Below, one piece after another: positions 1 to 56,342 of a DNA stretch of 64,000 nucleotides. Below the pieces are notes generated by a model. It ran no database searches, had not been told where the DNA came from, and saw only the letters and a program-made list of their open reading frames with translations. Each line of letters starts with the position of its first letter. Positions within the stretch are counted from its first letter, which is position 1. The DNA is from an uncultured Eubacteriales bacterium (GTDB lineage: Bacteria; Bacillota; Clostridia; Christensenellales; CAG-917). The stretch is taken from positions 30 through 64,029 of the forward strand of contig ONYW01000001.1 of NCBI GenBank assembly GCA_900322215.1. The letters run 5' to 3'. Made by a program: the position numbers and the translations under genes.

Positions 1-82
1 ACCTCGGGTGACCAACCCAGTGTACTAAAGCGTACACGGTTGGGCAAACGGGGTGCGATAACACAGCAGGTCGCTAAATCAC
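1..82 (+). ncRNA. Structured intergenic element, copy A (subtype 2; 5' part lost at window edge)
   Basis: Nearly identical to 48188-48268. Hairpin CCAACC-CA-GUGUAC / GUACAC-GGUUGG at 12-43, core GCGAUAACACAGCAGGUCGC at 55-74. The closing-stem half UAAAUCAC (75-82) overlaps the mnmM stop codon (79-81). A U5 tract follows at 86-90. Strand is tentative. Confidence 0.5.
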
Positions 83-630
83 GCGTTTTTGAGAATAAAT
101 ATCGGTATCGGCGGATCCTTCTTCCAGTTGTGGAACGTGGTGACAAGCACTTGATATTTTGCGTCGTCGAGAGTTTTCAACCACGGCAGGAGCGCGTCCT
201 TCTCTTCATACCCGCTATCACCGCCGTAGTAGACGGAAACGCACATCAAGCCACCGCTTTTAAGCAGTCTGAGTCCTTTTTCTATCGCTTCGCGAGTCGA
301 GTCGAAATGCGTAAAAATCGAGTGATTTCCGCGCGGAAGATAACCCAAATTGAAGACGATACAGTCCACGGTATTCTCGTCTGCATACTTGTCCATATTA
401 GCATGTGAGTCCAAAACGACGTCGGCTTCGAGCCCTTTTTCTTCAAGCAACTTCTTCGTGCTGTCCACAGCCTCTTGCTGAATATCGAACGCTATGACTT
501 TGCCGGACTTCCCGACGAGTTCCGCAAGAAAAGCCGTGTCATATCCGCGCCCTGCCGTTGCGTCGATGCAAAGCGAGCCTTCTTTTACGTATTGCTTTAT
601 TGTGCCGTGTACGATTGATAGTGCGTTCAT
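79..630 (-). CDS. mnmM: MnmM/YtqB-family class I SAM methyltransferase (tRNA mnm5s2U34 methyltransferase)
   Basis: 183 aa. IDATAGRGYDTAFLAELVG SAM-binding motif, VFNLGYLP motif, C-terminal KKDPPIPIFILK. Collinear with B. subtilis YtqB as I recall it. Confidence 0.8.
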   Translation of the reverse strand: MNALSIVHGTIKQYVKEGSLCIDATAGRGYDTAFLAELVGKSGKVIAFDIQQEAVDSTKKLLEEKGLEADVVLDSHANMDKYADENTVDCIVFNLGYLPRGNHSIFTHFDSTREAIEKGLRLLKSGGLMCVSVYYGGDSGYEEKDALLPWLKTLDDAKYQVLVTTFHNWKKDPPIPIFILKNA

Positions 631-4203: not shown

Positions 4204-5583
4204 TTATTCCCAGGATGCGACGAGAGTCATATCGGCGTTGACTGTGTTTGCAAAGTTGAACTTCACGCCGTTTGAATACCAACCGTCAAAGGCAAAGCCG
4301 GACTTTGACGGATTGGCAGGTTGAGTGAGAAGTCCGCCCGGCAAAACGATTTGTGAACGAACGGCGCTACCGCCTTGAGAGTCAAAGTTGACCGTGTAGT
4401 ATTTTGCGTCGGAGTTGCCTGTGAACGTGAGTTTCGCTTGTCCCATCGGGCGTTCGCAAAGGAGGTCGGCGTATTTTACGAGAGTCGCGCTGTAGCATGC
4501 TTTGCCTGCGATTTGATGGAGCACCGTACCGCCCTCGCCCTCGAGCCATCTCCAGTCGCAAAGTTCGTGAAGTTTGAAGTCTTGGCTGTTCAAAAGGTAC
4601 ATATCGCCGTCTTTGACAAATCTGTCCGCGACGAACGGAATGCCCGAATAGGAGAGCGCCTTGTAGCCGCCGTCGAGTTCCAAATAGTCGATGTTGGTTC
4701 TGTTGCCGGCAAGGAAGTCTACGTATTGCTTTCTCACGTCGTAGGACGTGACGATAAAGTCGATTTTGCTGCCCGCGTTCTCTTCGACGTAGTCGATAGC
4801 GTCCTGAATTGCGGAGACCGTGACCGTGCCGTCAACCGTCTTTTTGTACGGTGTGAGGAAGGAGTAGTCCGCGCGGTTCAAACCGTAGATCTGCGCGCTG
4901 TCGCCAAAGATAGCCTCGAGGCCCGTGATTTCGTTGTTCTTTGAGCCTTGCACGTAGATTTTGTAGCCTGCGCCGTACTTTGAAGCAGCCGTAACGGAGA
5001 GTGTGACGACCTTTGTCGCTCTGTCGATTGCAACGATTCTCGCGCCGGAGAAAGTGGTGTCCTTGACGTCACCCGCCGAGTACATGTCGATGACCATACC
5101 CTCGATGAGACCTTTTATCGAGTCAACCGTGATTTGATTGTTCGTTGCGCCGACGTTTGTGACGGTCGTAGCGATAAGTCCCGTGCCGTCGCCGTAGAGC
5201 ATACGACCAAAGTTGAATTTGCTGGCTTTGAGAAGTCCGTCCATCTCCGCGTTCAAGAGGTTGACAAACGCGCCCGCGCTGTTTTGTGACGCACGGATAG
5301 CCTTGTCGGAGAGTTCGATCTTGCCGAACAAGTTTTTGAGAGTCAAAGTAAACTGTGCATAGTTGTTTCCGCCGCTCGCAGGCAAGTTGTCGTTTTCCGC
5401 GCCCGAACCGATACCGCCGTTGATGCCGTACGGAGCGAGTTTTTTGACCTCTTTGCCCCAAACGTCCGCCGTAGTGTGTTCAATCTTTGCAAGGAGCGGA
5501 TTCACGCCGACGTTGAGTTGGTCGGCAAGCACGCCGAGGTAAAAGGTTTTTAATGCCTTATCTGCACTTGATAATGTGACCAT
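4204..5583 (-). CDS. Phage major capsid protein (HK97-fold type) with C-terminal Listeria-Bacteroides repeat (Flg_new) domain
   Basis: 459 aa, positioned directly after the scaffold gene, with capsid-like composition (GRMLYGDGTG...). The last ~65 aa, YYTVNFDSQGGSAVRSQ...GFAFDGWYSNG...TLVASWE, match the Flg_new repeat pattern. Confidence 0.75.
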   Translation of the reverse strand: MVTLSSADKALKTFYLGVLADQLNVGVNPLLAKIEHTTADVWGKEVKKLAPYGINGGIGSGAENDNLPASGGNNYAQFTLTLKNLFGKIELSDKAIRASQNSAGAFVNLLNAEMDGLLKASKFNFGRMLYGDGTGLIATTVTNVGATNNQITVDSIKGLIEGMVIDMYSAGDVKDTTFSGARIVAIDRATKVVTLSVTAASKYGAGYKIYVQGSKNNEITGLEAIFGDSAQIYGLNRADYSFLTPYKKTVDGTVTVSAIQDAIDYVEENAGSKIDFIVTSYDVRKQYVDFLAGNRTNIDYLELDGGYKALSYSGIPFVADRFVKDGDMYLLNSQDFKLHELCDWRWLEGEGGTVLHQIAGKACYSATLVKYADLLCERPMGQAKLTFTGNSDAKYYTVNFDSQGGSAVRSQIVLPGGLLTQPANPSKSGFAFDGWYSNGVKFNFANTVNADMTLVASWE

Positions 5584-5598
5584 AATTTGTTGTCTCCT

Positions 5599-6531
5599 TT
5601 ATTTGTTTTCTTTGAGGAACATAAATCCCGCTTCTTCTATCGTCTTGGGAGACTTTGCAGAGGTCGCGAATTGCTTTCCGCCTCCGCCGAGCACGAGAGG
5701 CGGTTCGCCCTCGCGCACGCCCCTAAGGTATTCGGCGACGACCGCGTCCTTTACTGCCTGAGACTTCAAGACGTATTCGTTCAAAAATTGTCCGTCAGAG
5801 AGAAGTTGCTCGGGGGTACGGAACTTTGAAACAAGCGTTCTCGTCAGCGCGACGGAGAGGCAATTTTTGTCCTTTTTTAGTTCGGGGTGAGCGATGATCT
5901 CGTTTGCGATATCCTTTGAGAAGGCTTTTGCCGATGGGGTCTCTTCAAAAAACTTGTCCACAGCCGCCCTCCAGTCCTCCTCGCTCTTGAACGCCTCTTC
6001 GCGCGCGCTCTCCAACTCTTTGAGTTTTTGAGAACGCCTCGTAAATTCTTTTTCAAGTTCGCCGTATGCTTTGAGCAATTCTTCCGGGTTTTTGAATTTG
6101 CCGTATTTATGTTCTTCTTGTTGTTCTTCTTTTGGTTGTTCTTGTTTTTGTTGTTCGATGTTTTGTTGTTCTAAATCTTGTTGTTCCGCGCTCCGAGCCT
6201 CTTCGAGAGAGTCATTTTGCTCCGCTTGCTTTTGTTCGGCAGCCTCATCTCCAGTTTGAAAATCAGGCCTGATTATGCCTAGTTGTTCCTGCTCGTCTTT
6301 TTCATCGACGTCTTCGACATGCGCGTCAAGTTCTTCGCCGTCAGCGACTGCACTTGGCACTTCGATTTGTTCGATAATTTGCATAATCGCCTGTTTATCG
6401 TTGTCGTTTTGACGTGTAAACACGTTGTTTTGAGATTTTTCGCCGTCAAAGATGTTTTCTTCAAGAATCAAATCCGCGTCCTCGAAGATATTTTCTTTGC
6501 CAAAGACGTTCTCGATTTCCTGCTCCGACAT
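5599..6531 (-). CDS. Phage scaffolding protein
   Basis: About 310 aa from the AUG at 6531, which starts 4 nt after the portal stop. Extremely acidic, Q/E-rich and helical, and located between portal and MCP. Confidence 0.6.
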   Translation of the reverse strand: MSEQEIENVFGKENIFEDADLILEENIFDGEKSQNNVFTRQNDNDKQAIMQIIEQIEVPSAVADGEELDAHVEDVDEKDEQEQLGIIRPDFQTGDEAAEQKQAEQNDSLEEARSAEQQDLEQQNIEQQKQEQPKEEQQEEHKYGKFKNPEELLKAYGELEKEFTRRSQKLKELESAREEAFKSEEDWRAAVDKFFEETPSAKAFSKDIANEIIAHPELKKDKNCLSVALTRTLVSKFRTPEQLLSDGQFLNEYVLKSQAVKDAVVAEYLRGVREGEPPLVLGGGGKQFATSAKSPKTIEEAGFMFLKENK

Positions 6532-10313: not shown

Positions 10314-11348
10314 ATGAGAAAGAATACGTTCAACAAAGTAGCAGCCATTTTGATTGTCGCAATCGCCATTGCCGTCATACTCCTGACGGCTTTGTCCATT
10401 TACGTTCCTGCCTTCACGGCATACGCGGAGGACGAGCAAACTGCGGAGACCATCACGACAAAGTGCATCAAAATCGCCCCTGCCGACCTTGAACACAGCG
10501 CATATTCTTCCCCGACGTCCATAGCCGTCAAGGATCTTGACACTGACGAAACGGTTTTTTATATTCCGGACAGTTATTATCTCACGGGAGTCGAATACAG
10601 GAAGATCGCAAGATTCAACTTCGAATACTACGCTTTTTCCTATGCGGGACTCGACACGAGCAAGTGGTATATCGACTATTCCGAAGCGTTGACGGTTGAG
10701 ACAGTCACGTTCACCGCGGACGAAACCCCCTTCCCCGACGTCCGTCTCACACTCATTGACACAGGCGAAACCGTCTATCTCGACAACGATACCGTGCTTA
10801 CAAACGAGTATACCATCAAGTTTATAGGCTTTAATCAAACGGGCGACGAGTTTTACGTCTCGGCGACAAAGGACGGCGTGACGAAATATGCCATGATCGG
10901 CAAGACGCTCTTCACCGACAGTTATATACCGTATCAAGCGCGCACGCAAGCGGCTCGAGAGCAACTGCTCAAAGAGATCGCCGCAACGCCAAAGGCGGGA
11001 GATATTGTGCCGAACACGTCAAAGACTCTTCGTATCATTTTGATAGTCGGTATATGCGTCCCCGCGGTGCTCATCGTCGTACTCCTGTTCAAACCGACGA
11101 AGGGCTCGCAAAAGCGTACGCTTGCCCGCGAACGCGGAAGAGACGAGTTTGACTATGACGAGCGCAGAGAATACCGTCGCGACCGCTATGACGACAGGCG
11201 CGACTACCGAGACGATAGACGAGACTACCGAGACGACAGGCGCGATGATAGGCGCGACTATCGCGATGACCGAAGAGATGATTACCGAGACGACAGGCGG
11301 GATTATCGTGACGAGAGAAGAGATGATTACCGCGACGATAGAAGATAA
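10314..11348 (+). CDS. Single-pass-anchored membrane protein with C-terminal Arg/Asp (RD) repeat tail
   Basis: N-terminal TM (AAILIVAIAIAVILL), a second TM near residue 270, then about 70 aa of DRRDYRDDRRD-type repeats. The AUG at 10314 is preferred over the UUG at 10284. Confidence 0.55.
   Translation: MRKNTFNKVAAILIVAIAIAVILLTALSIYVPAFTAYAEDEQTAETITTKCIKIAPADLEHSAYSSPTSIAVKDLDTDETVFYIPDSYYLTGVEYRKIARFNFEYYAFSYAGLDTSKWYIDYSEALTVETVTFTADETPFPDVRLTLIDTGETVYLDNDTVLTNEYTIKFIGFNQTGDEFYVSATKDGVTKYAMIGKTLFTDSYIPYQARTQAAREQLLKEIAATPKAGDIVPNTSKTLRIILIVGICVPAVLIVVLLFKPTKGSQKRTLARERGRDEFDYDERREYRRDRYDDRRDYRDDRRDYRDDRRDDRRDYRDDRRDDYRDDRRDYRDERRDDYRDDRR
11136..11345 (+). repeat. Coding low-complexity tandem repeat (RD/DYR repeats)
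   Basis: Iterated cgcgactaccgagacgac-like units encode the RDDRRDYRDD tail. Confidence 0.7.
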
Positions 11349-41230: not shown

Positions 41231-41316
41231 ACTACCCCGCCGCGCGTACGCGTGACGGGGTGTATTGTTTTCAACTTGAATGATAGTTTTGTATTGTGTT
41301 ATAGGTCGCCAATCTG
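41231..41316 (+). repeat. Decayed copy (C0) of the structured intergenic element
   Basis: Retains the CCCCG-CCGCGCGUACGCGUGA-CGGGG hairpin and the 3' end AGGUCGCCAAUCUGUGGG (compare 41473-41491, AGGUCGCCAAGCUGUGCGG). The middle is AT-rich and divergent. Confidence 0.4.
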
Positions 41317-41380
41317 TGGGATTTTATTACTTAAAATAATGTGAGATTGGTTTCTGTTATTCTTTTTTCCCAAAACCGCT

Positions 41381-41486
41381 CAGATTGGATGAGATGCTAG
41401 GAAAGGCACCTTTGGGAGAAGGGCGCGTACACGATCGTACGTAACCGACTACCAAAGGCGACTTGACAACGCAGGTCGCCAAGCTG
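41381..41486 (+). ncRNA. Structured intergenic element, copy C1 (subtype 1)
   Basis: cagauugg-GAUGAGAUGC...GGGCGCGUAC-acgauc-GUACGUAACCGAC...GACAACGCAGGUCGC-caagcug. The flanks are complementary and a UUUUCUU tract follows. Confidence 0.55.
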
Positions 41487-41509
41487 TGCGGTTTTCTTGC
41501 AATAACGTG

Positions 41510-41617
41510 ATATTTGGATGAGTTGCAAGGCATCGTGCCTTGAACAGCAGACCCAATGTACAACGCCGTACATGGTCTGGTGGGCAAGGTGCGATAACAC
41601 AGCAAATCGCCAAATAG
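41510..41617 (+). ncRNA. Structured intergenic element, copy C2 (subtype 2)
   Basis: auauuugg-GAUGAGUUG-[CAAGGCA-ucg-UGCCUUG]-[CAGACC-CA-AUGUAC-aacgcc-GUACAU-GGUCUG]-...GCGAUAACACAGCAAAUCGC-caaauag. It ends 4 nt before the pfp stop codon. Confidence 0.55.
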
Positions 41618-41621
41618 CGCG

Positions 41622-42872
41622 TTATTTAGCGTAGATCTTTTTGAGGCGCGCAAACCTAGGCAACCCATTCTCAAGCGGAGCCTTCGCGTCGCCTTGAATG
41701 AGCGGAAGCGCGTAGGTGATGAAATCGTCGCTCACGTTGTTGCCCTCTGCGTTGATCCAGCCGAGCGGAACTTTCTTTTCGGTGTTGGCGGCGTATTCGA
41801 GTGGCATGAGGACATTCTTGTTGTAGTAGTTGCCTTGCTCGTCAAAGTGACGCTCGAAGATAACCATCTTGTCCGTCTCGCCGTTCACTGCCGCGCGAAC
41901 TGCGGAAACGCCTGCCTCGAAAGCCTCTTCGACGTCGGTCTTGGACGCGAGGTGCGCTCCGCAACGTTGCATGAGTGAAAGTTCGATGCCACGTGTTTTG
42001 AATCCTGATTTTTCCTTGATGAGGTTTGCAAGGATGGACGCGACGCCACCGAGTTGCGCGTGACCGAAACTGTCGCGTGCCGCTTGCGGACCAAAGGATT
42101 CGCAAATGAGTTGACCTTCCTTGTTGTGGATACCCTCGGATACGACGGCGATACACTTGTTGCCGTTTCTCGCGCATACAGCCTTGACGTCTTCGACAAA
42201 CTTGTCGATGTCAAAGTCTACTTCCGGGAGGTAGATGAGGTCGGCGCCGAGTCCGTTCACCTTTGCGAGAGCCGCCGCTGCCGTGAGCCAGCCAGCGTGT
42301 CTGCCCATAGCCTCGATTATGCACACCATCGGCGTGTCATACACCTTTGCGTCGAGGTTGACTTCCATAACCGTAGTTGCGATGTACTTTGCCGCGGACG
42401 CATAACCCGGGCAGTGATCCGTGCCATAGAGGTCGTTGTCGATGGTCTTCGGAACGCCGATAACGTTGATGTCCCAGCCGGATTTTTGCATATACTTGGA
42501 AATCTTGTTGCAGGTGTCCATACTGTCGTTTCCGCCGTTGTAGAAGAAGTAGCGGACGTTGTACTTTTTGAAGACTTCCAAAATCCTCTTGTAGTCCGTA
42601 TCGTCAACGTCTGCGTCTTTGAGTTTGTAGCGGACGGAACCGAGTGCGGATGACGGAGTGTATTTGAGAAGGTCGATTTCTCTAAGGTCTTCCTTTGAGA
42701 TGTCGAAGAACTTCTCGTTGAGAATACCGACAATACCGTGTTCCGCGCCGTAAACTGCGGTGATGTTGTCTTGAGCGAGAGCCTCGGTGAAAACACCCGC
42801 GGCACTTGCGTTGATAACTGACGTCGGACCGCCTGATTGTCCGAACATACATGCGCCTTTCAAGTTGTTCAT
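41622..42872 (-). CDS. pfp: 6-phosphofructokinase of the long, probably PPi-dependent type
   Basis: About 416 aa from the AUG at 42872, which has an AAGGAG RBS. GQSGGPTSVINAS, GGNDS and PKTIDNDL motifs. PPi specificity is inferred from the family pattern, not proven. Confidence 0.7.
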   Translation of the reverse strand: MNNLKGACMFGQSGGPTSVINASAAGVFTEALAQDNITAVYGAEHGIVGILNEKFFDISKEDLREIDLLKYTPSSALGSVRYKLKDADVDDTDYKRILEVFKKYNVRYFFYNGGNDSMDTCNKISKYMQKSGWDINVIGVPKTIDNDLYGTDHCPGYASAAKYIATTVMEVNLDAKVYDTPMVCIIEAMGRHAGWLTAAAALAKVNGLGADLIYLPEVDFDIDKFVEDVKAVCARNGNKCIAVVSEGIHNKEGQLICESFGPQAARDSFGHAQLGGVASILANLIKEKSGFKTRGIELSLMQRCGAHLASKTDVEEAFEAGVSAVRAAVNGETDKMVIFERHFDEQGNYYNKNVLMPLEYAANTEKKVPLGWINAEGNNVSDDFITYALPLIQGDAKAPLENGLPRFARLKKIYAK

Positions 42873-42888
42873 ATTTTTCTCCTTATTG

Positions 42889-42901
42889 CACACTTCGTGT
42901 G
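42889..42901. promoter_or_regulatory. CACAC-TTC-GTGTG inverted repeat immediately upstream of the pfp RBS
   Basis: Exact 13-mer, extended to GCACAC/GUGUGC. The mRNA strand reads CACACGAAGUGUGCAAUAAGGAG. Confidence 0.4.
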
Positions 42902-42999
42902 CGTTTGTTGTTTTATTAATTTAGAATAATATTTATTTCTTCCGGCTGCGCCAAAGGCGCAAAATTAATTCTATTTATACCTTAAATAAAGTTGTTTTT

Positions 43000-43345
43000 T
43001 TCATTCAGACGGGCTATCGTTGTTTAACCCTAAATGCAACACCCCTTCCTGCTCCGCCAGGTTTCCCCACCGCGGAACCTACCGAACACAAGTTGCTCAC
43101 TTTTAAGGAATAAACAAAACTGTCGTTCGCAACCTTGCTATTCCCTACAAGAGTGTATTACTCGCTCCGGGGACACCAAGTCGGCACTCTAAAATCCGGT
43201 TTTCTCTATTCTTTGCCACTTCGCCTTTGGGACGCTCCGCAACAAAATGTTCCAAAGTCTCGTACTGAGTGCAGACCGAGGCACTCCGGGGACTCCGCCA
43301 TTGCGGAGTCGGCTCCGTCTTCGAATGAGTGTGCGTTAGAAGCCC
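43000..43345 (-). other. Unassigned GC-rich, hairpin-dense non-coding region between pfkA and pfp (candidate ncRNA or long structured leader)
   Basis: No credible ORF. Perfect hairpins at 43291-43310 (8 bp), 43267-43286 (6 bp), 43150-43190, 43107-43144 and 43224-43257. Duplicated motif CTCCGGGGAC...GTCGGC at 43165-43185 and 43284-43313. Strand not determined. Confidence 0.3.
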
Positions 43346-43359
43346 TCAAACAAACTTCA

Positions 43360-44349
43360 TTACTTCGAAATGACCTTAGCCAAATCATAAAGTTTTTCGT
43401 CAAACTCTTTTGGTATGCGAAGGGCTTCTAATACGGTTGTGTCATAGATGTCGCCGCCGCGAATGCCGACCACTCTGCCCGACTGACCGCACATGATGAG
43501 TTCTACTGCGCGCTGTGCCATACGAGCGGCGAGGACTCTGTCTGCAACCGTCGGATTTCCTCCGCGTTGCATATAGCCGAGCGCCATGTGGTTGACGCGT
43601 CTGCCCGTAGCTTCGGAGATCTCTTTGATGAGGTCGTCTTTTAGGTAGTTCACGCCTTCCGCGAGCAAAATGATCGTGGACGTCTTGCCCTTCACGTCAT
43701 AGCCTTTTTTGACGCTCTTTGCAATCTCAACGGGATCGACGGGACTTGCCTCAGGGACGATGACGTATTCCGCACCGCCTGCGACCGCCGAGTTGATGGC
43801 GATATTGCCGCTGTCTCTGCCCATAACTTCCAAAATCATGATTCTATCGTGAGAAGTGATGGTGTCGCGGAGTTTCAAAATCGCGTCGATGACAGTGTTG
43901 CACGCCGTATCGAAGCCGATAGTCGAGTCGGTATAGCCCATATCGTTGTCGATAGTGCCGGGGATACCGATGACGTTGAGTTCGGTGTTCTCGTGAAGTG
44001 CCTCCACGCCGTGGAAAGAGCCGTCTCCGCCGATGACGATGAGGTTTTCGATGCCTCTGTTGATAAGGTTTTGAGCCGCTTTCTTTTGCACTTCGGGATC
44101 CTTAAATTCCAAGCAACGAGATGTCCTGAGGATCGTTCCGCCTGTATGCACCGTGTTGGAAACGGATTTGTATTCCATCTTGAAAATCTCGTCGTTTACG
44201 AGTCCTTGATAGCCGTGCATAACGCCGTAAACTTCATAGCCGTTGTGCATAGCAAAACGAAGTGCCGTACGGATTGCCGCGTTCATGCCCGACGCGTCGC
44301 CGCCGCTTGTCAAAATAGCCAAATTTTTGTTCGTTAAATTTTTTGCCAT
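43360..44349 (-). CDS. pfkA: ATP-dependent 6-phosphofructokinase
   Basis: 329 aa. GGDASGMNAAIR, IGGDGS and PGTIDND motifs. Confidence 0.9.
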   Translation of the reverse strand: MAKNLTNKNLAILTSGGDASGMNAAIRTALRFAMHNGYEVYGVMHGYQGLVNDEIFKMEYKSVSNTVHTGGTILRTSRCLEFKDPEVQKKAAQNLINRGIENLIVIGGDGSFHGVEALHENTELNVIGIPGTIDNDMGYTDSTIGFDTACNTVIDAILKLRDTITSHDRIMILEVMGRDSGNIAINSAVAGGAEYVIVPEASPVDPVEIAKSVKKGYDVKGKTSTIILLAEGVNYLKDDLIKEISEATGRRVNHMALGYMQRGGNPTVADRVLAARMAQRAVELIMCGQSGRVVGIRGGDIYDTTVLEALRIPKEFDEKLYDLAKVISK

Positions 44350-44404
44350 ATATTACCTCGAGAATTGAATTCTAGTTTTTTATATTTATTTTCCGCTTAT
44401 AAAT

Positions 44405-44518
44405 CGTATGAGTGTGATGAGATGCGAGGAAGAGGGCCCGGGAACGGAGGGCGCGTACATATGCGTACGCAACCGACGAGCCAAGTGCCTCTGACAAAGC
44501 AGGTCGCTCACTCATGCG
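44405..44518 (+). ncRNA. Structured intergenic element, copy D (subtype 1)
   Basis: cguaugagug-u-GAUGAGAUGC...GGGCGCGUAC-auaugc-GUACGCAACCGAC...GACAAAGCAGGUCGC-u-cacucaugcg. The closing stem is 10 bp with one U-G pair. TATAAA lies at 44398-44403 and a U-rich tract at 44520-44530. Confidence 0.55.
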
Positions 44519-44520
44519 AT

Positions 44521-47500
44521 TTATTTTTTTGTTGTGAGTTTAACGCCCTTTTCCCCTACTATAAGTTGGAGTTTATGCAACAACTCGTCGTTCACGTCGA
44601 CCTTGTAGGGGAATTGCATGAGTTTGTATTCATCGCCGACTCTGACTTGTGCGCGGACAGGAGTCACGCCCGGGTGAATTTGAAGCACGCCTGTGACGAG
44701 TTCTTTCTCGCTGTTGTCGCGGAGGAGTACGTAGAGGACGCTGCTCGGAGCGGATTTTGCCTCCTCCGCCCTTTGGTTCTTCCAGGGTTCGACCTTGTCT
44801 ATCGTGACCTTTGGTTCGCTCTCGTCTTTTAAGTCAATGCGCCCCGTGAGTTTTATCGGTTCTTCGCCCTCCAAAAACGCGCCGTATCTCTCGTAGACTT
44901 TCGGGAACATGGAAAACGCAACGGAGCCCATCTTGTCCTCCACTCTACCGACAGCGAATTTGAGTTGTTTCGCCGTCGTCTTCTTTTCAAACGACGATAC
45001 GATGCAACCGAATTTCACTTGCTTGCCGTCGAGTGCTTTGTCCGCGACCATGACGGTCTCGCCGTCCTCGTTTTGTTCCTCGACGAGGAGTTGGCTCGTG
45101 TCAAAGTTGAACTCCTTGCTCCAGTCGTCGTAGTCGTCGAGCGGGTGACCGGAGATATACATTCCAAGCACTTCGCGCTCGAAGGACAGGCGTTGCGCCT
45201 TGTCGTACTCCCTCACCTCGCTATACTGGATTTCGTCGTCCTCGATGAGTTCGTCAAAGAGGGAGACTTGACCTGTGAGTTTGCTCTTTTTGTCGTTCAG
45301 GACCGTGTCCATAATGCGCTCGTATGACGCCATAAGCGTTGCTCTGCCCTTGCCGAAAGAGTCCATCGCTCCGCCCTTTATGAGGCTTTCTATCATACGC
45401 TTGTTGATTTGCCCCGCGCATCTGTCCAAAAGGTCTCGAATATCTTTGAACGGGCCGTTTTTTGCACGCTCTTCAAGCAGGTATTCCATAGCCTGCTCGC
45501 CGACGTTCTTTATGCCCATGAGTCCGTAGCGGACGTTTTCGCCCTCGATGGAGAAATATTTCTTTGAGCGGTTGATGTCAGGCGGCAAAATCTTCACTCC
45601 CGTGCGCTTGAGATAGTTCATATAGTGCTTGACTTCGTCGGCGGAGGTGATACGGTTGTTGACGACTGCGACGATAAAGTGCGACGGATAGTAAAGTTTT
45701 AGATACGCGGTTTGATAGGTCAAATACGTGTACGCCGCCGCGTGGGATTTGTTGAACGCGTATGAGGCAAATTTCAAAATCTCGTCAAAGAGTTTGTTCG
45801 CGACCTTTTCGTCCACGCCGTTTGCGACCGCGCCCTCGACGACCTTGCCCGTCTTGTCTCCGTCAAGCACGCCGCCGTGGAGGAATATATCTCTCATTTT
45901 TTGCAGGACTTCGAGTTTTTTCTTTGCGATAGCACGGCGCATTATGTCCGCTCCGCCAAAGGAGAAGCCCGCGAGTTTTTGCGCTATTTGCATGACCTGC
46001 TCTTGGTAGACGATACAGCCGTAGGTATTGCCCAAAATCTCCTCCAAGCGCGGATCGTCGTATACGACTTGATCGGGGTGACGTTTGCCCTGCAAGAAGA
46101 GGTCGATAAACTGCATAGGTCCCGGGCGGTACATGGAGATGCCTGCGGTGACGTCTTCAAAGTTCTCGGGTTGCAGTTGCGCCATAAACTTTTTCATACC
46201 GCCGCTTTCAAGTTGGAACACGGCCTCGCAGTCGCCCGAGCCGATAAGTTTGTAGACCTCGGGGTTGTCATAGCCGAGTTCGTGGAAGTCGAGCGTTATG
46301 CCCTTGTCTTCCTTTATGAGTTTCAAAGCCTCGTCGATGTCCGTCAAGGTTTTGAGCCCCAAAAAGTCCATTTTTAGAAGACCGAGTTCTTCGACTATCG
46401 CCTTGTCAAACTGCGTCGTAATGACAGGACCGTTTCTTGAAAGAGCGCAATGTTCGACGACGGGATCCGCGCAAATAACGACGCCCGCCGCGTGCATCGA
46501 GGTCTGCCTCGGCATACCCTCGAGTTGCATGGCGATGTCGATGCAGTTCTTTGCCGCCTCGTTCGTCTCGTAAATCTTTTTGAAATCAGGGCTGTAGAGT
46601 TCGCTCCCCTCGATGAGCAGTTGCGGGAGCAACACTTTGCCGACGGGGATCTCCTTGACCCAGTTGTTCGCTTCGTTGTACGGAACATCGAGCACGCGCG
46701 CGACGTCTTTGACGACCGCCTTTGCGCTCATCGTGGAGTATGCGATGATTTGAGAAACGTTGTCTTTGCCGTACTTTTTGATGCAATAGTCGATGACTTC
46801 CTGCCTTCTTACAAAGCAGAAGTCGATATCGAAGTCAGGCATAGACACGCGCTCTTCCGACAAAAATCTTTCAAAGAGAAGATTGTATTTGAGCGGATCG
46901 ATGTCCGTGATACCGATAGAAAACGCGACGATACTGCCACAACCGCTTCCGCGTCCGGGGCCTACCGGTATGCCCATTTGTTGCGCCGCGTGCACGTAGT
47001 CCCAAACAATGAGGAAGTAGCCGTCGAATCCGCATTTGTGAATGACGCCGAGTTCGTATTCGAGCCTCGTCTTGATCTCTTCGGTTATGACCTTGTATTT
47101 TTTTGTGATGTTCTTTTCCGCAAGATAGCGAAGATACCCTGCCTCGTCGAGTCCGAGACTCTCCATCTCTTCGCAGGTGTATTTCGGAATGATAGAGGCG
47201 TGCTTTGTGATGAAATAGTCGCCGTCCACCTTGTCCGCGATTTCCTTTGTCGAAGCGATAGCCTCGGGGCACCAGGAGAAGAGTTCTTCCATCTCCTCCC
47301 CGCTCTTGAGATAGAACTCGTCATTCGTAAAGCGCGCGGGATTCATCTCGCTCTTTTTGCAACCGAGAGTTATGCACATCATCGTGTCTTGAAGATCCGC
47401 GTCCTCTTTTTCTATGTAGTGAACGTCGTTTGTCGCGACGACTTTGACGCCTATCTCCTTTGCAATTCTACAGAGCGGATTCATGACGATTTTGTCCTCG

Positions 47501-48087
47501 TCGAGGTGATGGTCTTGAAGTTCTATATAAAAGTCGCCGGGAGCAAACATATCGCGCATGCGAATTGCCAGCTCCTTTGCCTCGTTATACTTCCCCTGCA
47601 AAATGAGGTGCGGAATTTGCCCCGCAAGACATGCGGAGAGGCAAATAAGCCCTTCGCTATGTTGAGCAAGGACGTTGAGGTCAATCCTCGGTTTCATATA
47701 AAAACCGTCCACAAACGCCATAGAGGAGAGTTTCATTAGGTTTTTATAGCCCGTCATATTTTTGGCGAGAAGTATGAGGTGATAGCGCTGTTTGAGCACG
47801 TCGGGAGTCTTTGCATACATGTCGTCCGCGACGTAAAATTCCTCCCCGATGATAGGCTTTATTCCGTCCGCGCGAAGAGTGGACACAAACGTGTACACTC
47901 CGTACATATTGCCGTGGTCGGTGATGGCAACGGCGGACATACCGCGCGCCTTTAGAGCCTCGGAGAGAGGATGCAGTTTTTTCGTCTTGTTCGGATCTTT
48001 CGGATCTGGCACGACTTTAATAAGCCTCACCGCTCCGTCAAGCAAACTGTATTCCGTGTGTAAATGTAGATGTACAAAATCTGTCAT
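44521..48087 (-). CDS. dnaE: DNA polymerase III alpha subunit
   Basis: 1188 aa. N-terminal PHP domain (FVHLHLHTEYSLLDG), polymerase core and a C-terminal OB region. Confidence 0.95.
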   Translation of the reverse strand: MTDFVHLHLHTEYSLLDGAVRLIKVVPDPKDPNKTKKLHPLSEALKARGMSAVAITDHGNMYGVYTFVSTLRADGIKPIIGEEFYVADDMYAKTPDVLKQRYHLILLAKNMTGYKNLMKLSSMAFVDGFYMKPRIDLNVLAQHSEGLICLSACLAGQIPHLILQGKYNEAKELAIRMRDMFAPGDFYIELQDHHLDEDKIVMNPLCRIAKEIGVKVVATNDVHYIEKEDADLQDTMMCITLGCKKSEMNPARFTNDEFYLKSGEEMEELFSWCPEAIASTKEIADKVDGDYFITKHASIIPKYTCEEMESLGLDEAGYLRYLAEKNITKKYKVITEEIKTRLEYELGVIHKCGFDGYFLIVWDYVHAAQQMGIPVGPGRGSGCGSIVAFSIGITDIDPLKYNLLFERFLSEERVSMPDFDIDFCFVRRQEVIDYCIKKYGKDNVSQIIAYSTMSAKAVVKDVARVLDVPYNEANNWVKEIPVGKVLLPQLLIEGSELYSPDFKKIYETNEAAKNCIDIAMQLEGMPRQTSMHAAGVVICADPVVEHCALSRNGPVITTQFDKAIVEELGLLKMDFLGLKTLTDIDEALKLIKEDKGITLDFHELGYDNPEVYKLIGSGDCEAVFQLESGGMKKFMAQLQPENFEDVTAGISMYRPGPMQFIDLFLQGKRHPDQVVYDDPRLEEILGNTYGCIVYQEQVMQIAQKLAGFSFGGADIMRRAIAKKKLEVLQKMRDIFLHGGVLDGDKTGKVVEGAVANGVDEKVANKLFDEILKFASYAFNKSHAAAYTYLTYQTAYLKLYYPSHFIVAVVNNRITSADEVKHYMNYLKRTGVKILPPDINRSKKYFSIEGENVRYGLMGIKNVGEQAMEYLLEERAKNGPFKDIRDLLDRCAGQINKRMIESLIKGGAMDSFGKGRATLMASYERIMDTVLNDKKSKLTGQVSLFDELIEDDEIQYSEVREYDKAQRLSFEREVLGMYISGHPLDDYDDWSKEFNFDTSQLLVEEQNEDGETVMVADKALDGKQVKFGCIVSSFEKKTTAKQLKFAVGRVEDKMGSVAFSMFPKVYERYGAFLEGEEPIKLTGRIDLKDESEPKVTIDKVEPWKNQRAEEAKSAPSSVLYVLLRDNSEKELVTGVLQIHPGVTPVRAQVRVGDEYKLMQFPYKVDVNDELLHKLQLIVGEKGVKLTTKK

Positions 48088-48153
48088 ATTTGTTCCTATA
48101 TCGTTTGTATGCTAAAATTTTTGTGTGTTTGTATAAATTTTTCGCTTTTAGAA

Positions 48154-48273
48154 GGTGCGTGAGTGGGATGAGATGCGCGGCATCGCGCTTTGAATGACCA
48201 ACCCAGTGTACTCAAGCGTACACGGTTGGGCAGGCAAAGTTCGATAACAAAGCAGGTCGCCCACTCACACGCC
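48154..48273 (+). ncRNA. Structured intergenic element, copy E (subtype 2)
   Basis: ggugcgugagugg-GAUGAGAU-[GCGCG-gcau-CGCGC]-[CCAACC-CA-GUGUAC-ucaagc-GUACAC-GGUUGG]-...UCGAUAACAAAGCAGGUCGC-ccacucacacgcc. The 3' stem half contains the whiA stop codon and its last two sense codons. Confidence 0.55.
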
Positions 48274-49239
48274 TGAAAGTTCTTCGCTTATCTCCACCAA
48301 CTTCCTAAGTCTATGATTTAGCGCGCTCTTGCTTATGCCAAGCGCGTCCGCAAGGTCTTGAAGACTGCTCTCGGGGTTGTCCATACGCGCTTGCGCCGTC
48401 TCTTTGAGAATCGGGGTGAGAGCCTCAAAAAGCCCCGCGCCCATGATTTTGCCTATTGCGAGCAAGTGCTTGCTTGCGGCGGCGAAAGTCTTGTCCATAT
48501 TTGCCGTTTCGCAGATGATAGCGCGGTTGAGGCTGTTTGCAGTCTCGCGTTCGTTGATTATCATTTGGAGTTTCAACACGCTCTCGGTGAGTCCGAAGAT
48601 GGAGAGCAGTCTTGCGATCTCGTCCTTGTCTTTGAAGTAGACGAGCGTATGGTCTCCTCTCTCGCTCGTCTTTGCCTGCAAGCCGAAGAAGTCGAGAAGT
48701 GCGACCAAATCGTTTGCATAGTCCTCGTCGTCCAGTTGAAATTCGAGATGGTAGCCGTCGCGCTTCTCCTCATCCGCGGACATGGACGGCACGTACACGC
48801 TGCCCGTGCCCAAGAAGAGTCCTGCAAGAAACGCGCTCTTTTCCTCTTCCGTTTCAAGGAGTTCGTTCGGAGTGCCTTCGACAAAGCCGTTTAAGGCGTC
48901 GCCGTCCACCGTCATAAGGCGGAAGTCTACGAGTATCTGTTTTGAAAACCCGTATGGCACCTGGAGCGAACAAATTTGTTTGCCAGCCTTAGGTCCCGAT
49001 TTTGCGGTGGTGAGAGAGAGTTCAAACTCGGTCGGATAGAGCGACTTGAACGCCTCAACTATCTTCATACCTTCGTCAAAACTGTCGAGCGCAAGGCACA
49101 AATTCATACGCTTATTCACGATTTCAAGCGTGCCGACCGCCTTTGTGAGTCCCGCGAGAAAAGCCGTAAGTCGAGACTTGTCGCTTGGCAAATTTTCGGT
49201 TATTTCATATTGCACTTCATCCTTAAAAGTCTCGCTCAT
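48265..49239 (-). CDS. whiA: DNA-binding protein WhiA
   Basis: 324 aa. LAGLFLGTGS LAGLIDADG-like region and a C-terminal HTH (LQDLADALGISKSALNHRLRKL). Confidence 0.9.
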   Translation of the reverse strand: MSETFKDEVQYEITENLPSDKSRLTAFLAGLTKAVGTLEIVNKRMNLCLALDSFDEGMKIVEAFKSLYPTEFELSLTTAKSGPKAGKQICSLQVPYGFSKQILVDFRLMTVDGDALNGFVEGTPNELLETEEEKSAFLAGLFLGTGSVYVPSMSADEEKRDGYHLEFQLDDEDYANDLVALLDFFGLQAKTSERGDHTLVYFKDKDEIARLLSIFGLTESVLKLQMIINERETANSLNRAIICETANMDKTFAAASKHLLAIGKIMGAGLFEALTPILKETAQARMDNPESSLQDLADALGISKSALNHRLRKLVEISEELSGV

Positions 49240-55293: not shown

Positions 55294-56342
55294 TTTTCGT
55301 CTCCTTTAAGAAGTCTTCCGATCTGCATCTCTATTCCGAGATACACAGTGTTTGAGAGCACGCCTTCATACATATTCACGTTCATTCTGTTGTATGCTCC
55401 CACCATTTTGTTATATGTAGATTTCAGCAAAAACGACAGTTCATCCGCGTTTTTGACAAGATAATCTGCCTTTTTTGCACATTCGCCGTAGTTTAGCAAC
55501 AAGACGTTATACGTGCCTTTCTTGCTGTCTTTCTCCACGTCGTCAACGGCGTCGGCAAGATATACGAGTCTGCCGAGGTTATAGCAAAAGTCGTCTATAT
55601 CTCTCTTTTCATCCTCTGTAAGGGACTTCGTCTCCTCTTCGCAGTCTTCGACTGTTTGTTTTGCTTTAGTAGATTCAACAATTTGTTCGTTGCTTTCAGC
55701 AAATTTTGAAAGTTTGCTTTCCTCGTCTTCGCAGCCTTCGGCTGTTTGTTTTGCTTTGGTAGGCTCTACAAGTTGCTCGTTACTTTCGGTATATTTTGTG
55801 AGTTTGCTTTCTTCATCCTCACGAATAAGCTCTCTTGTTATATCTCGCATGAGGCTTGCAAAGGTGTCGGCAACTCTGTCGATAGAGTCGCACTTCTCCT
55901 TTTCAAGGCGTGCGAGAAGCCCGAAACGTTCTCTCATGAGCGCGTCGATTTTTGGCATATTCTTTGCCGCCTTGCGCTTTCGAAGATACAGCCTCCATGC
56001 AAGCGGAGCCCTGAGTTCCTTCCCGTCGGCAACGTCGTCCTTTATGTTGTAATAGACAAGGAGGACTGCAAGATCCGCCATTTTTTTTGACAATTCGTCA
56101 GGCTCGACAATCACCTTTTTCCTGCCGTTGTACACGCAAAGTTTTCGCTCGAATTTGACGGGCGTCTTTGTGATTTCGTGCATGAGCACGCTATAAAAAG
56201 TCACGTCATAGTTTGTGCAAAATCTCGTCACCTCACTGCCCGTCTCGTGCAGTGCCTTGCAAAGACCGCAATAAAACGCTTGAAAGACGTTGAAGTCCTT
56301 TATCAGCATATTGTCTTTGTCGGGTATGACGTAGCCAAACAT
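55272..56342 (-). CDS. DUF5685-family protein with internal 30-aa tandem duplication
   Basis: MFGYVIPDKDNMLIKDFNVFQAFYCGLCKAL N-terminus is typical of DUF5685 as I recall it. The repeat is EDEESKL(T/S)K(Y/F)(T/A)ESNEQ(L/I)VE(P/S)TKAKQT(A/V)E(G/D)C, in two copies. Confidence 0.6.
   Translation of the reverse strand: MFGYVIPDKDNMLIKDFNVFQAFYCGLCKALHETGSEVTRFCTNYDVTFYSVLMHEITKTPVKFERKLCVYNGRKKVIVEPDELSKKMADLAVLLVYYNIKDDVADGKELRAPLAWRLYLRKRKAAKNMPKIDALMRERFGLLARLEKEKCDSIDRVADTFASLMRDITRELIREDEESKLTKYTESNEQLVEPTKAKQTAEGCEDEESKLSKFAESNEQIVESTKAKQTVEDCEEETKSLTEDEKRDIDDFCYNLGRLVYLADAVDDVEKDSKKGTYNVLLLNYGECAKKADYLVKNADELSFLLKSTYNKMVGAYNRMNVNMYEGVLSNTVYLGIEMQIGRLLKGDEKCQITRL
55636..55815 (-). repeat. 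Two-copy 90-nt in-frame tandem repeat inside the DUF5685 gene
   Basis: The tcttcgcag(t/c)cttcg(a/g)ctgtttgttttgcttt... unit recurs with period 90 nt at roughly 80 percent identity by eye. Confidence 0.75.

Follow-up and report, generated by a model that had tools for sequence, protein, structure and literature searches.

A hairpin repeat docked on the dnaE stop codon of an uncultured Eubacteriales bacterium belongs to a dispersed family with a strand-biased fold

The DNA analysed here is a 64,000-nt stretch of contig ONYW01000001.1 from an uncultured Eubacteriales bacterium, hereafter the window. Within it, dnaE and pfkA are encoded on the - strand, and the junction between them is occupied by a long imperfect hairpin, copy D, whose coordinates are collected in Table 1 with those of the other copies of the same element. 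A preliminary description of this DNA had read copy D as a self-contained + strand transcription unit, antisense to the operon. The sequence features on which it drew are all present. The closing stem of copy D contains 10 pairs with a sole wobble, TATAAA stands upstream, and ATTTATTTTTTT follows directly after the stem and overlaps the dnaE stop codon, which reads TAA on the - strand. Wobble pairs that had been pointed out in two other copies, G41425-U41442 in copy C1 and U48156-G48271 in copy E, can likewise be read from the sequence.

In the predicted fold, the + strand RNA of copy D forms a single long rod with a minimum free energy of -60.2 kcal/mol (z = -5.9), compared to -46.6 kcal/mol (z = -4.9) for the - strand. 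The stem is predicted to extend outward beyond the closing helix to 44399-44524, with AUAAAU (44399-44404) pairing with AUUUAU (44519-44524). The supposed TATAAA box and the start of the supposed U tail are therefore the two arms of a terminal inverted repeat. Most of the U-run of copy D is the complement of the last two lysine codons of dnaE. The closing stem, P1, covaries among the copies of the repeat, with 15 of the 20 pairs of helix 1 altered on both sides.

Table 1. Copy D, its parts, the neighbouring genes and the other copies of the repeat (window coordinates; C38 denotes contig coordinates of covariance model matches).
Feature	Position	Strand	Description and basis
Copy D, full element	44399..44524	+	Single long imperfect hairpin, A-run and T-run arms included; covariance model R1 match C38:44428-44553, 109.8 bits; fold
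5' arm of closing stem P1	44405..44414	+	Pairs with 44509-44518, U44407-G44516 wobble; sequence
TATAAA	44398..44403	+	A-rich 5' terminus of copy D, paired with ATTTAT 44519-44524, not a -10 box; fold and flank profile
Conserved 5' core GAUGAGAUGC-GAGGAA	44416..44431	+	Bulged A, conserved U-G, partner strand of tandem G-A/A-G
Apical GUAC-loop-GUAC hairpin	44455..44468	+	Columns invariant; helix 4 100% paired
Conserved 3' core UGACAAAGCAGGUCGC	44492..44507	+	Covaries with 5' core; alignments
3' arm of P1	44509..44518	+	Sequence
T-rich tail of copy D	44519..44530	+	First 4-6 nt are the element's T-run; the remainder is the complement of the last dnaE codons (AAA AAA) and stop codon
dnaE (DNA polymerase III alpha)	44521..48087	-	Pfam PF07733, PF17657, PF02811; ORF list; TAA stop 44521-44523 inside the T-run of copy D
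pfkA	43360..44349	-	Pfam PF00365; 49 nt from the other end of copy D
Copy C1	41371..41496	+	R1 match, 117.7 bits
Copy C2	41500..41627	+	R1 match, 120.9 bits; docked on the stop codon of the long PFK gene (ORF end 41622)
Copy E	48150..48277	+	R1 match, 114.6 bits; whiA stop codon (48265-48267) within its 3' arm
Copy A	1..83	+	Truncated at the window start, intact on the contig; R1 match C38:1-112

A profile built from the four complete copies of the window was used to search the 1.59-Mb, 65-contig genome. About 148 copies of a hairpin repeat of ~125 nt were recovered at E <= 1e-3, 130 of them near full length, and the covariance model R1 found 147 copies in the same genome. The genome holds 115 sites, 22 of which are tandem arrays (20 of these in direct orientation), and the copies are distributed across most contigs, next to syntenic housekeeping genes. 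The family is uncatalogued; searches of Rfam returned no match at gathering score in the window and none relevant at E <= 10 in 41300-48400. Read 5' to 3', the consensus consists of AAAACCGC, a variable P1 arm, GAUGAGAUGC-NAGGAA, a variable stem, GUAC-loop-GUAC, the return of the stem, UGACAAAGCAGGUCGC, the P1' arm and GCGGUUUU, and terminal inverted repeats (AAAACCGC...GCGGTTTT) are present in the family.

Across the copies, 95.7% of cells are paired and 28 of 39 pairs vary on both sides. None of 500 shuffles scored as high, and slid controls gave 29–42% pairing. Covariation in the core is seen as GAGAUGC/GCAGGUC, GAGUUGC/GCAAAUC and GAAGAGC/GCUAUUC, and a non-Watson-Crick pair at positions 29/92 covaries almost perfectly, appearing as A-G in 61 copies and as C-A in 22. 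The bulged A of the 5' core is found in 84 of 84 copies, and GAUG, together with the A of the GGAA box, is invariant in A2. A hammerhead or a simple K-turn was considered for the GAUGA and UGAC boxes and rejected, because on inspection the motifs do not correspond and Rfam gave no ribozyme match. In four copies outside the window that belong to one subfamily (C30:25633-25834, C36:1649-1845, C25:1856-2056 and C52:73207-73402) the apical part is swapped for a conserved insert of ~60–90 nt (cgaggcgcgacgcgttaagcggacaatcctgtgaattgtccgtagcccaagcgaacgagg...), which indicates that the tip of the rod is modular. Repetitive DNA of other kinds is also present in the window: positions 11151-11339 hold a coding-type tandem repeat with 12/21-nt periodicity that encodes an Arg/Asp/Tyr-rich low-complexity stretch, and positions 55632-55811 hold a 90-nt tandem duplication that is 83% identical.

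The preference of the fold for the + strand, which had been proposed from three wobble pairs, holds for the family. In the + orientation, G-U or U-G occupies 212 cells in this genome against 35 for A-C or C-A, counts that are cells rather than independent events, several of them subfamily-wide features, and that come from a covariance model giving a slight advantage to matches bearing G-U. A single U-G is kept in 82 of 84 copies. Of 99 copies, 89 have the more stable RNA on the + strand, and the mean free energies are -59.6 kcal/mol for the + strand and -50.9 kcal/mol for the - strand. The same bias recurs in two distant Bacillota carriers, G399 and G104, in which G-U and A-C stand at 91:25 and 71:6, respectively; both retain the U-G beside the bulged A as well as the AGGAAU/AUGACA boxes. 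The + strand is apparently the selected strand of the repeat, and the selected fold of the family lies on the strand complementary to the mRNA of the docked gene. The asymmetry between strands is -6.0 kcal/mol where a neighbouring gene could transcribe the + strand and -10.4 kcal/mol where none does. That it is not larger at the transcribable sites argues against its maintenance by transcription in place or by an RNA function at each site.

The antisense placement described for copy D proved to be a rule of the family. In 77 of the 115 sites the 3' end of the element lies <=10 nt from the stop codon of a gene on the opposite strand, whereas the 5' end is docked in 4 (binomial p ~1e-18; docking was scored with crude ORF calls and the elements masked). 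The median offset is -2, with the stop codon inside the T-run or the 3' arm. Within the window, the rule is illustrated by copy D at dnaE, copy C2 at the long PFK gene and copy E at whiA, and it recurs in G399 (16 of 26) and in G104 (9 of 12). The + strand is the C-rich strand and the leading-strand template in 71 of 85 copies, and replication strand was considered as the main cause of the orientation. It was rejected, because docked copies track gene direction even at lagging-strand genes, the rule applying to all nine docked genes of that kind; gene direction, not replication, sets the orientation of the repeat, and the docking orientation follows it. The copies of G399 (L033-L052 and L065-L071) carry an extra conserved 11-nt tail on one side only, reading ...GTCAC-TTAGGTTRCGG in the mRNA sense, and the stop codons docked there lie 0–5 nt before the element in T-R-R-G-G contexts. 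The one-sided tail and these stop contexts hint at a sequence-specific, asymmetric target.

According to the sRNA-gene proposal, each element, copy D notably, would consist of an AT-rich upstream promoter, a 115-nt structured RNA and an intrinsic terminator. The better fold of the + strand and the U-run of copy D, unusually long on that strand, favour it, and the flanking sequence was searched for the promoter that it calls for. A -10 box at TATAAA would place the start of transcription at ~44410, inside the 5' arm, and the closing stem that the sRNA model needs would be lost. In the flanks of 109 copies, the A residues at -1 to -3 are mirrored by T residues at +1 to +5, and each position from +1 to +4 is a T in 82–95 of the 109. 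Beyond the A-run, no conserved sequence was found upstream of these copies, and -10-like hexamers in their 5' flanks had no preferred position. Matches to -35/-10 promoters were found in 8.3% of the 109 5' flanks; the corresponding rates were 22.7% for the upstream regions of genes and 4.5% for random windows. A weak + strand match at copy D, TCGAGA-17-TATATT (44358-44386, 9/12), would place a start ~5 nt before the extended stem; however, 9/12 matches occur at chance level around copy D, where 9 were found and 5.4 +/- 2.6 expected. This match overlaps the ribosome-binding region of pfkA on the opposite strand. Tandem copies lie 6–25 nt apart, which leaves no space for a promoter. No promoter travels with the element.

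The U tracts had been said to be weaker on the - strand, which is true of copy D itself and is not upheld across all copies (5.16 versus 4.86 T in the 9-nt tail, p = 0.13). Docked copies show a modest difference, 5.52 T on the + strand and 4.78 on the - strand (p = 0.003), chiefly at convergent sites (6.04 versus 4.96). Since the A-run before the hairpin mirrors the T-run after it, both strands end in UUUU(U) and any terminator is two-way; the A4/T4 termini give the copies of this genus a hairpin and U-run on both strands. A stable stem directly followed by a U-run is seen in this genus and not in G399 or G104 (2–3 T of 10). The termini in those genomes are GTGACGC.../CAGACCG..., with a U tract on neither strand, so the built-in terminator is a peculiarity of this genus and not a trait of the family. 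With TATAAA inside the stem, no conserved promoter in the 5' flank, tight tandem spacing, symmetric A- and T-runs and relatives that have no U tract, the self-contained + strand unit was not borne out. The flank of copy D, moreover, arose by a species-specific insertion. Copy D is probably not a self-contained small-RNA gene, and the view that every element is one appears highly improbable.

Comparison with congeners bears on the age of copy D. All 26 sampled genomes of the genus, this one included, have pfkA, and dnaE lies immediately upstream of it in the 19 congeners in which the end of dnaE was located. The element is present at the junction in none of the 19. In the two nearest relatives (pfkA protein 89–90% identical), the gap between the dnaE TAA and the pfkA start is 21 and 29 nt, compared to 171 nt here. 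Judging from these comparisons of the junction, copy D appears to be a recent species- or lineage-specific insertion into the operon. No - strand promoter-like site was found between copy D and pfkA at the threshold of the scan, which suggests that pfkA probably relies on read-through of copy D in the mRNA sense. In that sense the hairpin is weaker and the U-run is interrupted (UUUAUAAG). At docked sites genome-wide, the mRNA-sense hairpin is at -48.8 kcal/mol where the genes are co-directional and at -54.3 kcal/mol where they are convergent (p = 0.024), while the + strand is unchanged (p = 0.62); a weaker mRNA-sense hairpin at co-directional docked sites is suggestive only. The dnaE-pfkA gaps of three congeners (G016, G021 and G004; L015, L016 and L017) hold 190–360 nt of another repeat, made up of arrayed hairpin units of ~22 nt (tgcNNNNgca then atttca), and a GC-rich terminator-like hairpin lies upstream of the array.

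The element was found in every genome of the genus that was sampled, at 1 to >80 scored copies per genome, with 84 candidates scored in each, and was absent from 16 genomes sampled in the other families of the order. Outside the genus its distribution is patchy, with R1 detecting relatives in 15 of 278 sampled Bacillota genera (~5%). Enzymes that might mobilise it were sought in the carriers. No Y1 transposase (RAYT; PF01797) was found in this genome (G000) or in G104, and no reverse transcriptase (RVT_1) was found in these two, in G399 or in five other carrier genomes. Of 17 other carriers, 13 have Y1 genes, none of them adjoining an element. A RAYT/IS200 partner was rejected for G399, whose 610-bp IS200 copies have no sequence in common with the element and do not have it at their flanks. 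The long Y1 genes found in G363, G284 and G397 were rejected as partners because they carry no element-like sequence. Integron integrase (TIGR02249) was above the 265-bit cut-off in 0 of 12 carrier genomes. Among 67 single copies there was no consistent direct repeat at any offset or length; a TA duplication could hide in TA-AAAC...GTTT-TA. A half-element search of this genome found no 5' and 3' halves parted by a gene-sized insert, and no parent IS was found. Retro-insertion primed by an RNA U-tail on TAAAA has an attractive geometry, but it was set aside because the carriers tested have no RVT_1 domain. Group II introns home next to hairpins, and in one genome (G062) a distant copy at C127:4207-4329 lies ~930 nt from a 481-aa reverse-transcriptase ORF (5260-5880) that is group II intron-like; this proximity may be coincidence.

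The closest functional analogy to the repeat is the bottom strand of integron attC sites. These sites, for example the 123–126-bp VCRs of Vibrio cholerae, are likewise imperfect palindromes of similar length that lie right after, and often overlap, the stop codon of an ORF. Their functional fold is formed by the bottom strand, which is complementary to the coding strand, as is the + strand of the repeat, and in both cases the strand is chosen by unpaired or extrahelical features. In large chromosomal integron arrays the folded attC strand is on the leading-strand template (PMC5371416; PMC2727003), an arrangement that the repeat matches in its 71 of 85 copies. In contrast to attC cassette arrays, the copies of the repeat form no cassette array next to attI and are dispersed beside housekeeping genes in synteny. 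Its inner boxes are conserved and its outer stem is variable, which is the reverse of attC, its AAC...GTT ends are found in this genus only, and, unlike integrons, it has no integrase above cut-off in the 12 carrier genomes searched. The likeness is one of resemblance only, and the repeat departs from the class in integrase, array organisation and box architecture.

REP, BIME and REPIN sequences are also high-copy intergenic palindromes, REPINs being hairpins of ~100 nt formed from two diverged inverted halves, and they likewise carry conserved asymmetries that are read on single-stranded DNA. Unlike REPs, the repeat has no GTAG/CGTC tag; in this genome AAAACCGC and GCGGTTTT form its consensus termini, and relatives have GTGACGC or CAGACCG instead. 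It also differs from REP/RAYT systems in that Y1 transposases are missing from G000 and G104 and Y1 genes elsewhere are not flanked by it, and REPs do not show its strict, single-orientation docking on stop codons. ERIC/IRU, Correia and MITE-like repeats, including bcr of the Bacillus cereus group, are also palindromic, non-coding sequences of ~100–150 bp with terminal inverted repeats, are also present or absent between relatives, and can serve as terminators or processing sites according to orientation. The repeat is set apart from these by having no detected target-site duplication and no parent IS, by an outer stem that covaries and is not a conserved transposase-binding repeat, and by an orientation fixed to the abutting gene. 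With bidirectional intrinsic terminators the copies of this genus share a stable hairpin between an A-run and a T-run and a U-run on both strands; unlike such terminators, the repeat is 125 nt long with conserved internal loops, is mobile, has ~150 copies, and has relatives in other genera that lack U tracts.

Two further accounts would assign a function to the inserted copies themselves. On the first of these, + strand RNA would arise whenever spurious or convergent transcription opposes the gene, the element would be kept as an antisense insulator that terminates such transcription at the 3' end of genes, and its orientation bias would result from selection after insertion. Of 113 scored sites, 89 have the 3' end of the element facing the 3' end of a gene, which fits such a role, as does the enrichment of convergent-gene sites (28 of 64 docked sites, versus 17.7% of all gene pairs). 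The slightly richer + strand U-run of docked copies, chiefly convergent ones, agrees with it, as does the weakening of the mRNA-sense hairpin, with no change on the + strand, at co-directional relative to convergent sites. However, G399 and G104 share the docking rule and the strand bias without any U tract, so termination cannot be the ancestral reason for the orientation of the family, and a bias of 77:4 with base-precise docking would be hard to reach by selection alone when the termini are palindromic. We consider insulation unlikely as the reason for which the element is kept. REPs near stop codons in E. coli modulate translation termination, and in a comparable role the functional molecule would be the mRNA-sense (- strand) hairpin of the 3'-UTR, which would stabilise or terminate the upstream transcript or modulate translation termination, the + strand bias being incidental. 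This strand is certainly transcribed, directly after the stop codons of expressed housekeeping genes, it still folds at ~-51 kcal/mol, and in this genus it ends in a U-run. Against this, transitions are kept ~6:1 toward pairing on the other strand, and the features conserved in the family appear on the mRNA strand as a C-A mismatch and tandem pyrimidine mismatches. Established mutation biases include C-to-T bias linked to transcription or to replication, and such a bias would be expected to enrich G-U on the mRNA-like strand and not on the + strand. A terminator at this junction would also be costly, given the short dnaE-pfkA gap of the nearest relatives. A function of the mRNA-sense hairpin therefore seems quite unlikely.

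With moderate confidence, we favour the interpretation that copy D arose by the recent insertion, specific to this lineage, of a non-autonomous dispersed hairpin repeat, one fixed end of which docks on a gene's stop codon. By analogy with attC bottom strands and REP hairpins, the + strand would matter as a folded single strand during propagation and not as RNA made from each copy. The fixed orientation may arise from an asymmetric insertion step at a target that contains the stop codon, TAAA here and T-R-R-G-G in G399. Once inserted, copy D would act as a passive two-way barrier to transcription. Its long U-run is predicted to make the barrier strong toward + strand (antisense) transcripts that approach dnaE. 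From dnaE to pfkA the barrier would be leakier, because the mRNA-sense hairpin is ~14 kcal/mol weaker and has an interrupted U-run. In this genus, blocking antisense read-through is a possible and reasonable secondary function. What weighs against a mobile repeat is that no mobilising enzyme was identified and no target-site duplication detected, and that the folded strand is mainly the leading-strand template, whereas IS200/IS605 elements do the reverse.

Dispersed palindromic repeats are usually thought to act via co-transcribed mRNA and are usually tied to a RAYT or an IS. Here, a family found in ~5% of sampled Bacillota genera combines base-precise docking on stop codons in a single orientation with a fold on the opposite strand, and no known mobilising enzyme accounts for it. 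As a tentative and more far-reaching suggestion, the elements may constitute a new class of strand-specific folded-DNA sites in Bacillota, functionally attC-like but dispersed and docked on ordinary genes' stop codons, and moved or recombined by an enzyme outside RAYT/IS200/IntI, or may instead be portable antisense-RNA modules; in either case, selection would act on the strand complementary to the mRNA. Should the folded strand serve as a DNA substrate, Gram-positive bacteria would be expected to have an undescribed activity for single-strand recombination or transposition. Should it serve as an RNA, the family would represent a widespread portable antisense module. For annotation, the sites of the repeat should not be called sRNA genes or simple terminators, and the repeat supplies or overlaps the stop codons and C-termini of ~75 genes in this genome.
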